This document shows, piece after piece, positions 25,516-53,669 of a stretch of DNA of 64,000 bases; position 1 is the stretch's first letter, and the number at the start of each line of letters is the position of its first letter. The notes beneath the pieces are model-generated. The model saw only the letters and a program-made list of their open reading frames with translations, had not been told where the DNA came from and did no database searches. The translations under genes and the position numbers were made by a program. The DNA comes from Chiloscyllium plagiosum (taxonomy: Eukaryota), in the NCBI RefSeq assembly GCF_004010195.1, contig NC_057719.1:9587112-9651111 (forward strand), written 5' to 3'.

Positions 25516-25689
25516 CTTCACATCCACGATCTATTTGCCCACTCCGATGTAACGCATCGTGAATCAGATCTGGCAGCCTTCCATTGAGGTCGACAGATGC
25601 CAAGCAACCCTGAAACCCATCTCTGGAGGCGACAAGTTTCGGCAGATTGCTGTACATGCCTTGGGCCAGCCCAGCAATGTATAGGACAC
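25516..25689 (-). CDS. NRXN3: Neurexin-3-alpha exon, end of LNS5 ([58 protein letters not shown])
   Basis: tttctctaaccag|GT GTC CTA TAC ... TGT GAA G|gtacag; 174 nt. [17 protein letters not shown] is the NRXN3-type motif. Confidence 0.97.
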
Positions 25690-26656: not shown

Positions 26657-26847
26657 CTTTCAGGTCCAGGTTTTTGGCACCATTGATGATCTGAGTCACA
26701 GATCGAGCATCCACCTTGAGCGTGTGTGTGTTGCTGTTGTCCCGAGTAATTACCACATTGTGCCACTGATTGTCGCTCAGGGACTTTTCAGAGTTCCCTT
26801 TGATAACATTTGGCCCATTTCCCAGGTCAAACACATAGTGGATGTAC
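26657..26847 (-). CDS. NRXN3: Neurexin-3-alpha exon, LNS5 ([20 protein letters not shown]...GAKNLDLK)
   Basis: cttctcctcccgtag|G TAC ATC CAC ... CTG AAA G|gtaagc; 191 nt; phase 2 in, phase 1 out, fitting both neighbours. Confidence 0.97.
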
Positions 26848-28908: not shown

Positions 28909-29290
28909 CCTTTAACTAATTCCACAGCGATAAAGTCATTGCCATCTCCACTGTTGAAGAGAATGAATCCATCAGGAGATGTGGTCTTGAACTGGAAGAA
29001 GAGATGCATGGATGTGTACGCCTGCAGAGTGGCCAAGGTCAAATAGCTGTTCTTCGTTTTGAAAGTGACGGGATCTGCAATAATGGATCTCATGCCGAAC
29101 CTTGCGTTTATTTCACAGTATTCAATGTCCCCATTTTTGCACAGATCGATGTACATCATTCCATTAAACATCAAGCTCTGCAGGTGCCCAATGAAGCTGG
29201 AGGGAGCAATGGAGATGAAGCGTCGTTCCGTCATGATCCCGGTCTCGATGTTGTGAAATTCCAGTCGTGTGTGGTCACCAAGCATTTGAC
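28909..29290 (-). CDS. NRXN3: Neurexin-3-alpha exon, end of LNS4 and start of LNS5 ([18 protein letters not shown]...[10 protein letters not shown])
   Basis: Within ORF 28905..29375; ttgattttag|GT CAA ATG ... GTT AAA GG|gtaagg; 382 nt. NRXN3-type residues ([38 protein letters not shown]). Confidence 0.97.
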
Positions 29291-46428: not shown

Positions 46429-46548
46429 CTTCCGCGGTGACTTCATCGACCATCAGCTTCAGGTTTTTACCTCGGCGGATCACTCGGACGGTGTGCCAGT
46501 CATTGTCATTGAGCTTTTGTCCAGCGTAAATGGTCTCTGGTCCTTTGC
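46429..46548 (-). CDS. NRXN3: Neurexin-3-alpha exon, LNS4 domain ([39 protein letters not shown])
   Basis: Minus strand reads cctttcccag|GC AAA GGA CCA ... GCG GAA G|gtacaa; 120 nt, phase 1/1. The peptide matches the NRXN3 segment [27 protein letters not shown]. Not in the ORF track. Confidence 0.95.
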
Positions 46549-49500: not shown

Positions 49501-50616
49501 CATTCAATAGGAGCATGGCTGATCTCCTTCCGTTCCGAACTCCATCATCACATCTATCTTCAATAGCCTTTGATTCTTTTTTTTAAAACTTACTCACAGG
49601 ATGTGGGCATCACTGGCTAGGTCAGCATTTATTGCCATCCCTAATTACCCAGAGGGCATTTAAGAGTCAACTACTTTGCTGTGGATCTGGAGTCATATGG
49701 AGGCCAGAACAGGTAAAATACCTTCTCTAAAGGATATTAGTGAACCAAGCGAGTTTTTCCAACAATCCACAATAGTTTTATGGTTATCACTAGACCTTTA
49801 GTTCCAGATTCTTCATTGAATTCAAATTTCCCCATCTGCCATGGCAAGATTTGAACCCAGGTCCCAAGAACATTAGCTGAGCTTCTGGATTAATAGTCTA
49901 GTGATAATACCACTTTGCCATTCCATCCCCAATTCTCCTGCCTGGTAAGAAACAATCCACCTCCACCTTAAACAACATTAAATGACTCCATCACCTTCTC
50001 AAGCACTTCCACAGTTGCACAACCCTCTGACAGAAAATAATTCTCACCTTGGTCCTACAAGGGAGAACCCTAATTTTAGAACAGTCCCCCCAAGTTCCAG
50101 ACTGAGCCACAAGAGAAAACATCCACGTTTAGTTTGTCAAAGCCTTTTGGGATCTTCTGTCAAAGTCACCTCTCAGTTTTCTAAACTCCAGCGGAAACAG
50201 TCCCAGTCTGACAAACTTTTCTTCCTCAGATAACCCAGTCATTCCAGGTTCAATTAACAGCAGCAACTGAACAAAAACAACAACAGGATGCCCAAACTAG
50301 CGTCAAACTCGGTTGACATGTAACTCAAACACAACCATCTGTACAACAGCTTGATGGCCTAAAGGGAGGATGAGTCACCCAATCACAAATGAGATACTAA
50401 AAACAAAAGTCACTGTTCAATAATTAATTGGATGAGTAATGAATACTGGTCTTGGCAGAAATGTTCACATTCCAGGAATGGATATTAAAACAACACACCC
50501 AAACCTGCCAATATAACATCCTGCTTTGCACCTGTATGTCACTGTACTTTCTGTCAAGAGGAGTGGATAATGAACTCATTACTATCACTGGCCTCGGATT
50601 TGTGTTGTCAATTTAC

Positions 50617-50634
50617 CTGAATGCTCACGCCAGT
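50617..50634 (-). CDS. Candidate 18-nt in-frame neurexin microexon, (D/N)WREHS
   Basis: cacttgccgccag|AC TGG CGT GAG CAT TCA G|gtaaat; phase 1/1, matching the downstream KGPET exon; preceded by ~140 nt of pyrimidine-rich sequence with no AG. No homology recognised. Confidence 0.5.
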
Positions 50635-50972
50635 CTGGCGGCAAGTGTTCGGAAACATGAGAAGACGGGGAGAGAGAGGAGGAAGAAGAAAGGAAAAATA
50701 ATTAAGAGCATGAAGAGAAAGGAAAATTTTTTAAAAATTAAAAATAAAGTGAAAACAAAATAAAATTGAAAATAAAAGTCTTGCATACATATGGTGTTTT
50801 TCAAGAAGATCTAGCAGCACCTTACAGTCAATGAAGTATTGCCTGAACTGTACGCATTGGTACAGTCAATTGCCACTCAGCAAGCTCTCAGAAGCAGCAA
50901 TGTGGTAATGTGCATAAAAATCTGTTTTTGTGATATTGATCGAAGGAGAGATATGAGCAATGGAGATGACTT

Positions 50973-51543
50973 CATAGAACATAGAACATAGAACAATACA
51001 GCACAGAACAGGCCCTTCGGCCCACGATGTTGTGCCGAACATTTGTCCCAGCTTAAGCATCTATCCATGTAGCTATCCAATTGCCGCTTAAAGGTCACCA
51101 ATGATTCTGCCTCTGCCTCTCCCACAGGCAGCGCATTCCATGCCCCCACCACTCTCTGGGTAAAGAACCTACCCCTGACATCCCCCCATACCTTCCATCC
51201 TTCACCTTAAATTTATGTCCCCTTGTAACACTCTGTTGTACCCGAGGAAAAAGTCTCTGACTGTCTACCCTATCTATTCCCTTGATCATCTTATAAACCT
51301 CTATCAAGTCACCCCTCATCCTTCGCCGTTCCAATGAGAAAAGGCCTAGCACTCTCAACCTATCCTCGTACGGCCTATTCTCCATTCCTGGTAAATCTCC
51401 TCTGCACCCCCTCCAAAGCTTCCACATCTTTCCTAAAATGAGGCGACCAGAACTGCACACAGTACTCCAAATGTGGCCTAACCAAAGTCCTGTACAGCTG
51501 CAACATCACCTCACAACTCTTGAATTCAATCCCTCTGCTATTG
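50973..51543 (-). mobile_element. Young CR1 3' fragment
   Basis: ORFs 51095..51460 and 51375..51635 ([13 protein letters not shown]); (catagaa)n tail. Confidence 0.9.
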
Positions 51544-53669
51544 AGGGACAGTGTGGGGAGAGACAGGGGACAGGGCAGAGCAATCCCTCTCCTTGCTTCT
51601 TCTTCAAGACAAGGGCATGTAGTTTCTTTTTCCATTCATCCACATAGGCAGATGAGGCTTCAGTTTGATGTCTCAACTGAAAGAGAGGAACACCGATAGT
51701 CCCTCAGCACCCGCACTTGAATGTGTGGGACCTCGGAGTAAAAGTTCACAGATCTCTGAAGGTAGCAAGACCAGTCAATAAGTTGGCTAAGAAGACATAT
51801 GGAGTCCTTATTGGGATGGAAGGACTGAGGTATGAAGAGAAACTGGATCAGTTATGACTGTGTTCACTGCAGTTAAGAAGAACATTGGGGAAATCTCAAA
51901 AACTTATAAATTCTAACAGGACCCACAATGGGGTGGGTCTGGGTGGGATCCTTGTTAGAGGGTCAGTATTGACTCAATAGGCCAAATGACCTGCTTCCAC
52001 GTTGTAGGGATTCTATGATTTCAACGATTCTACGACTAGACAGAGTATATCCAGGAGGGATGTTCCTGGGGCTGAGCAGTCCAGAACCAGGGGGTCACAG
52101 ACTAAGGATATAGGGTAGGCCATTTAGTACTGAGATGAGGAGAATTTTTTTCACCCAGAGAGCAGTGAGGCTTATGGTTGAGGCCAAAACATGGAACGTT
52201 TTCAAGATGGAGTTAGAAATAGTTCTTGATGCTAAAGGAATCAAAGGGAATGAGACGAAAGAGGGTACAGAGGTCTATGCTGGATGATCAGCCATGATAT
52301 ATTGAATGACTGAGCATTTTCAAAAGGCCAAATGGCCTTCTCCTGCTCCCACTTTGTCTGTTCCAAGATTAACCGAGATATAAGATACAAGTTCAAGGAA
52401 GTTAGATTGAAAGTACACTAAACACTAGTTATGTCACAGCTAGAGTATTGTGTTCAATTCTGGTCTTTCTTCATTCATTCATTCCAGAAAGGATATAATT
52501 ACACCAGAGACAGAACAGAGAGATTTACAAGAATCAAGGATTGAAAAAATACAGGTCTATGGAAAGAGTGGACAGGCTCGAGGATACTCATTGGAACAGA
52601 GTAGGTTGAGGTCAGGTTTGAGGTCCACAAGGTTGTTTCAGTCCTGAATAGAATGAATAGAAAGGGGCTACTTACATTAGCAGAAGGGTCAATGACTAGG
52701 GTGCATAGGTTTTAATTGTCTGATCAAAAGGTTAGAGAGGAAATGTGGAAAAAAGAATGATTCACACTCAGGGTAGTAAGGGTTTGAAAGTCACTGCCTG
52801 AAGGTGTAATAGAGAGTGAAGCCCTCAAATTAGTCAAAAGGATAAACATGTGTAACCGACAGAACAACAGACTCGATGCTGGAAAGTAGGCTGGGTGGCT
52901 AGTGCAGAAATGATGGGCCAAGTGGATACTTTCTGTGTGATGAACAGCCTGAGGCCCTAGGAATGATTGCCTTGATTCTTGTACGCAAGCCCTGGAGTGG
53001 GACTTGAACCCTGAAATTTGTGACTCAGAGGTGCGAGAGTGCTACGAGATGAGTGCTAAAGTGCACAACATAACCCACTGGATTTCAGAACTGCCACTCC
53101 AATCTGTTCTTCTGTCTTTATTAAACCCTTTCCTTTCTTTCAACATTCTGCCATTATTATTGTGTTTGGCACTGCTGTGAACTTAATCCTGAGCTTCAAA
53201 CATATTATTCTACATGTTCCTTATCTGGGCTCCTTGAATCTTTAATGAAGTCAGGTTTCTCATCTCCTACTCATTCCTGGCACATCTACAACATGAAGTC
53301 CCTTGCCCTTGCTTTCAGACTTCTCTACCTTTCAGAAGTTAGAGGCTTATGTCTGGGGATGCAGAGCATTACCATCCTTATAGGTTTAATTCCCACACCA
53401 GCTGAGGTTACCATGAAGGATTTCTTGTTCCTTTGGGACTATGGTGACTTTATCTCTACAACCTTGGAAAACTCAAACTTGCTGCACCTTAAAGACTCAT
53501 CTCACTGCCTGCAATTTAATAATGGTTCTGCTTTGAAACACTTCACTCTTCAGTCATATTACTTAACACATGAAAAAAATTGAACATTATTGTATAAGTC
53601 AAGGTGTCTCAAATGCAAGTTTGAAGAGACAGTCATAATCTAATTGCAAACTGGACACTGCTGATTTCC

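Follow-up and report, generated by a model that had tools for sequence, protein, structure and literature searches.

An 18-nt segment on the minus strand of the neurexin-3 alpha gene of the shark Chiloscyllium plagiosum is, on balance, best read as a real but minor cassette microexon, predicted to be neuronal through SRRM3/4, which would add six residues to the SS3 loop of LNS4 and remove an N-glycan site. It was first proposed from splice signals in a window of 64,000 nucleotides (the whole stretch of DNA analysed; contig NC_057719.1), and its peptide is present letter for letter in one RefSeq protein model of the same species.

Gene identity and coding exons

The top protein matches of the window gene are named neurexin 3a. 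Across its four coding exons, 285 of 285 residues agree with the neurexin 3a proteins of Chiloscyllium plagiosum, C. punctatum and Hemiscyllium ocellatum; identity to other sharks is slightly lower. These matches identify the gene as neurexin-3 alpha and, together with an alignment to PDB 3r05 and 3poy, bear out the original prediction of a neurexin-3 gene and of an insertion at the SS3 position of LNS4. The coding exons are as follows.

46429..46548, minus strand: downstream LNS4 exon (KGPET...), 120 nt (sequence and protein matches)
28909..29290, minus strand: neurexin-3 alpha coding exon, end of LNS4 and start of LNS5 (protein matches)
26657..26847, minus strand: neurexin-3 alpha coding exon, LNS5 (protein matches)
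25516..25689, minus strand: neurexin-3 alpha coding exon, end of LNS5 (protein matches)

The canonical SS3 exon and the upstream VNL exon both lie outside the window. The earlier remarks that the DCIRINCNS exon could not be found in this window and that the microexon is not the canonical SS3 peptide were both correct; the canonical pattern D-C-x-R-x-x-C-x-x, encoded by a 27-nt exon, is not matched by the microexon.

Several other features of the gene were recorded. The KGPET exon contains a donor, CGAG/GTAAAA, at 46471/46470 on the minus strand. Isoform X2 of Hemiscyllium ocellatum (P0144) lacks exactly the 14 residues behind this donor, and thus one RefSeq model uses it; judging from the sequence, such use would delete core LNS4 residues in frame. 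A near-identical duplicated intronic segment with twin reading frames occupies about 17800-18300 and 19460-19960, roughly 1665 nt apart. In proteins (P0132, P0130, P0127 and others), beyond the reach of the window, the SS4 insert of neurexin-3 in Chiloscyllium takes up 31 aligned columns, just 5 of which are included in the Hemiscyllium models.

Splice signals and reading frame of the microexon

The microexon and its signals are listed below in reading order on the minus strand.

50637..50779, minus strand: AG exclusion zone of 143 nt with a long U/C tract, 79% pyrimidine (sequence)
50701..50708, minus strand: predicted branch-point-like CTCTTAAT, with its A at 50702 (-68) (sequence and inference)
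50641..50643, minus strand: UGC at -9 to -7, candidate SRRM3/4 element (sequence; function putative)
50635..50637, minus strand: 3' splice site CAG (sequence)
50617..50634, minus strand: 18-nt cassette microexon, phase 1/1 (sequence, and peptide in RefSeq XP_043552947.1)
50623..50628, minus strand: internal GTGAGC donor-like site (GGC/GTGAGC, giving a 6-nt form) (sequence; no protein model carries this form)
50611..50616, minus strand: 5' splice site GTAAAT (CAG/GTAAAT), matching the consensus at 8 of 9 positions (sequence)

The acceptor AG occupies 50636-50635 on the minus strand, with the preceding AG at 50781, and the 143-nt AG-free, U/C-rich stretch that had been described between them was recovered in full. 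The branch-like site, the UGC upstream of the acceptor and the CAG/GTAAAT donor are likewise present where the original prediction placed them. CTCTTAAT is one of eight yUnAy-like sites within the AG-free tract, and the UGC starting at -9 is the sole UGC within the last 46 nt before the acceptor. The 74 nt from the branch-like site to the acceptor are predicted to be unfolded (MFE 0.0), a state shared by only 1 of 320 window 74-mers, and pyrimidine richness alone suffices to explain it. A hairpin over the acceptor and the UGC (inverted repeat 50645-50622, minus strand, in which the UGC pairs with the exon) was rejected, being no better than shuffled sequences (z = -0.51, 51/200).

The 18-nt exon is frame-neutral and stop-free, has phase 1/1 and encodes WREHS without a cysteine. 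The next coding exon, which starts at 46548, opens GC AAA GGA CCA and therefore begins in phase 1, so that the microexon inserts (D/N)WREHSG before KGPET; in the product, (N/D)WREHSG replaces the S/G ahead of KGPET. The length, phase and peptide of the prediction are thus supported by both the exon and its downstream neighbour. Without the SS3 exon the product would read VNL-DWREHSG-KGPET, a form found in no protein model looked at. The internal donor that had been proposed for a 6-nt version exists and is in frame, and the product would read (D/N)WR, but this form is absent from all tabulated inserts of the protein models.

The surroundings of the exon were also inspected. A repeat origin was rejected, as the exon region has no match elsewhere in the window and no tandem repeat. 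A 106-codon frame on the plus strand (50443-50760) that overlaps the microexon was taken as chance. The 3' end of a LINE-like element, with reverse-transcriptase-like fragments and a short tandem tail, lies at about 50975-51640 on the minus strand and stops about 340 nt upstream of the microexon acceptor, outside the AG-free tract; it is presumably of the CR1 type. The region around the microexon (50581-50680) has 5 CpG per 100 nt, in the top 3.3% of 100-nt windows, which is a weak sign of either constraint or recent origin.

Support from a RefSeq isoform

The RefSeq model XP_043552947.1 (C. plagiosum isoform X24, hereafter P0130) reads VNL-DCIRINCNS-NWREHSG-KGPET, and its NWREHSG is identical in every letter to the product of the window exon. 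Because this peptide is the exact product of the 18 nt spliced behind the canonical SS3 exon, the predicted exon is very likely spliced at some level. NCBI numbered isoforms are built from RNA alignments, and XP_043552947.1 presumably rests on spliced RNA reads. When a 384-nt coding exon was used as a query against sequencing runs, 13 of the 24 runs listed held the exon and no RNA run was among the listed holders, a result that is uninformative on splicing either way.

Since the exon is present in a public gene model, it is annotated and not hidden. The description of the exon as undescribed therefore holds for the literature searched but not for RefSeq. Similarly, the insertion point at SS3 stands, but no replacement of SS3 is seen, as the sole model with the microexon carries both inserts. 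From these protein sequences, the microexon appears to be added after the canonical SS3 exon and not in its place. A diverged exon replacing SS3 was ruled out by P0130 together with the 81 of 114 chondrichthyan isoforms that have the canonical insert alone. Cassette behaviour is seen among the RefSeq isoforms of C. plagiosum, which are automatic and uncurated models: the exon is included in 1 of the 15 examined (at least 39 are numbered) and skipped in the others.

Isoform X5 (1684 aa) carries every other optional segment observed. Isoform numbering mostly follows length, so X1-X4 may carry the six microexon residues too, or alternatively a longer SS2.

Occurrence among isoforms and rarity of the signals

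Outside C. plagiosum, the microexon was found in none of 10 isoforms of C. punctatum, none of 2 of Hemiscyllium ocellatum and none of 87 from 12 other sharks and rays. The 114 shark and ray isoforms tabulated comprise 1 with the microexon, 81 with the canonical insert alone and 32 with no insert. Conservation in related species, to which the original prediction had looked, left no sign at the level of protein models (0 of 99 chondrichthyan isoforms outside C. plagiosum). The microexon was also not found in the collected bony-vertebrate neurexin proteins, again at the level of protein models. Overall, the motif occurs in 1 of 544 proteins compared, many of which are fragments or redundant isoforms. 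The microexon therefore looks minor in these sequences, and perhaps lineage-restricted.

The signals around the exon were ranked against the rest of the window. On the gene strand, 12 of 4247 AG-free intervals reach at least 100 nt, against 11 of 4557 for the opposite strand; the run before the microexon ranks second in length on the gene strand. A long AG-free run is thus not special by itself; the rarity lies in the combination of features. Acceptors were filtered throughout the window for an AG-free zone of at least 60 nt, a pyrimidine fraction of at least 0.7, YAG, a donor-like GT, a frame-neutral and stop-free segment, and a UGC. The microexon acceptor alone passed all filters on the gene strand and no acceptor did so on the opposite strand; the filters were set after the candidate had been seen, so this outcome is a ranking of the microexon and yields no P value. 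The 17,452 intron bases covered within the window contain 581 AG..GT segments of 3-27 nt that are frame-neutral and stop-free, and the microexon is the only one of them with a donor match of 8/9. The second-ranked segment (57561-57547, minus strand, 15 nt) was dropped, as it sits in what is presumably a SINE-like repeat; it is probably a cryptic site.

These two sets of data bear in opposite directions on the possibility that the exon is a young cryptic one. Under this explanation, a chance pyrimidine tract near a good donor would be spliced at a level of a few percent, with no selected function, would be tolerated because it is frame-neutral, and would have surfaced through deep RNA-seq in one species. 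Such an origin is possible, though on the doubtful side. It accords with the single carrier among 114 chondrichthyan isoforms, with the absence of the microexon from the models examined of the closest relatives, with a peptide unmatched in 543 of 544 proteins and with the equal frequency of long AG-free runs on the two strands (11 versus 12). Against it, a single site combines the frame, the donor, the position of the UGC and the tract, and ranks above 580 other segments, and the exon region has neither a repeat match in the window nor a tandem repeat. The high CpG density weighs little here, as it fits constraint and youth alike.

Searches among cluster representatives

Wider protein searches were also performed. 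In an insert-centred search, 4494 full-length and 19 short cluster representatives were scored, and no carrier was present among the matches listed (120 and 19, respectively), the best scores being 52-53 bits. A search of a 50% library gave 150 further proteins, 10 of which span the site, none with the microexon. These searches cover cluster representatives. P0130 itself sat inside a cluster of 76, and in the three large shark and ray clusters 15 of 76, 15 of 70 and 15 of 38 members were listed. For this reason, the failure to find a carrier does not equal absence.

This reach of the searches leaves some room for a second SS3 cassette that is ancient and conserved in cartilaginous fishes and that annotation has missed, given how little brain RNA there is and how difficult an 18-nt exon is to align. 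Strong microexon-type signals and the small number of models in several species also speak in its favour. However, the microexon is absent from all 22 Mustelus and all 16 Hemitrygon isoforms examined, despite many models and rich annotation of small exons, and deep conservation of this kind is accordingly quite improbable. It is very improbable that the exon is never spliced and that misaligned reads brought the 18 nt into the RefSeq model: outside support does come from just one automatic model, but the same borders had been predicted from splice signals alone, both junctions are canonical and in phase, and the exon ends overlap their neighbours by ACTG-type or AG-type stretches only and not by 18 nt.

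Predicted effect on the SS3 loop and its glycosylation site

Alignment to the structures that contain the SS3 insert (PDB 3r05 and 3poy; 3qcw and 2r16 lack it) places the six residues at the end of the SS3 loop, just past the second cysteine and N-S. The canonical SS3 insert ends in an N-x-S/T sequon that runs over the junction into the KGPET exon. This sequon is kept in 299 of 302 SS3-containing proteins compared; it is missing from P0130 and from two neurexin-2 models of gobies. In P0130, inclusion of the microexon turns N-S-S into N-S-N and the sequon is lost. This loss is a new point of the present analysis.

The SS3 asparagine was placed on the numbering of Nrxn1-alpha. Chain residues N95 and N160 of 3r05 correspond to Asn-125 and Asn-190 (offset 30, counted by eye). 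The SS3 Asn 732 becomes 762 and, with 20 residues of SS1 and 15 of SS2AB (8 + 7), Asn-797; the count assumes the full length of Nrxn1 SS1. Nrxn1-alpha Asn-797 is reported to carry a complex N-glycan (PMC4183798). As the SS3 asparagine maps to this residue, the site that inclusion would remove is one that bears a glycan in the mammalian paralogue. Microexon inclusion would therefore remove a predicted SS3 N-glycan site, for which occupancy in the shark is extrapolated from Nrxn1-alpha. In models cited in PMC3622022, the SS3 insert is in steric contact with the neuroligin site A insert, and this contact is a plausible place for an effect of the microexon. A structure prediction of LNS4 with both inserts had a mean pLDDT of 39.3 and was unusable.

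Resemblance to SRRM3/4-dependent microexons

The features described for microexons regulated by SRRM3/4 (also nSR100 or eMIC) include a strong branch point, a UC-rich tract, a UGC close to the acceptor and a long AG exclusion zone (10.1101/2021.02.24.432780). A strong donor and a distant branch point are given in another study (10.1101/2024.09.17.613571), and an unpaired region between branch point and acceptor in a third (PMC12871342). UGC is reported in 74-79% of regulated microexons and cryptic ones can have it too (10.1101/2024.09.17.613571), so UGC, as presented there, is neither necessary nor sufficient for the class. The shark exon matches the class in its size (3-27 nt), its preservation of the frame, its long AG exclusion zone, its UC-rich tract, its UGC near the acceptor and its strong donor. 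In one respect the comparison is unfavourable: deep conservation is usual for functional neural microexons (PMC12871342), whereas the protein models speak against wide conservation of the shark microexon.

The preferred reading, a real and minor cassette microexon, can be set out as a sequence of steps. SRRM3/4 would bind the UGC at -9, preceded by a distant branch point and a long U/C tract, and neurons would include the 18-nt exon through these factors, as predicted from the likeness of the motifs. The SS3 loop of LNS4 would then gain six residues. The shark sequon is presumed to be glycosylated like Asn-797 of mammalian Nrxn1-alpha, and a longer loop without the glycan would change ligand access around LNS4.

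Comparison with other neurexin splice sites and significance

The microexon resembles the canonical SS3 cassette of LNS4 (DCIRINCNS, 27 nt) in its intron region, its 1/1 phase, its insertion point between VNL and KGPET and its frame neutrality. In contrast, it is a separate 18-nt exon that encodes an unrelated peptide without cysteines, it lies downstream of the canonical SS3 exon, together with which it is included in XP_043552947.1, and it destroys the N-x-S sequon that canonical SS3 creates. Canonical SS3 is conserved from sharks to mammals, whereas the microexon is known from the model of one species.

Small optional segments stacked at one loop are also found at the composite neurexin sites, namely the mini-exons of SS1 and the SS2A/SS2AB pair. 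In the protein models, SS1 of C. plagiosum and its relatives consists of segments of 6, 10 and 4 residues, and SS2AB is SS2A with seven additional residues (PMC6856630). SS3, unlike these sites, figures as one insert, either included or skipped, in the accounts consulted, which list six neurexin splice sites (PMC9812575, PMC13212319). No description of the 18-nt exon or of a second SS3 cassette was found in the literature searched, which consisted mainly of open-access main texts; nothing on SS3 was found in PMC13373219. The use of SS3 is reported to vary by interneuron class and with activity (PMC9812575, PMC13212319).

A bolder reading is that cartilaginous fishes keep a second neuron-regulated SS3 cassette in neurexin-3 as a glycosylation switch, which would give the SS3 code a third state, lacking or overlooked in bony vertebrates. 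If this unlikely reading were true, SS3 alone would give an LNS4 loop that bears the glycan, and SS3 with the 18-nt exon would give a longer loop without it.

The splice sites of neurexins are regarded as a code for synapse identity, in which SS3 is among the less understood elements. Should the microexon be used only at a low level and in one shark lineage, it would amount to a minor detail of annotation. The loss of the glycan site would gain weight if regulation and conservation were borne out. By deleting the glycan site of SS3, a second microexon would provide a natural variant in which the effect of the loop is separated from that of the sugar. It would also illustrate the origin of a microexon at a site where splicing was regulated already.
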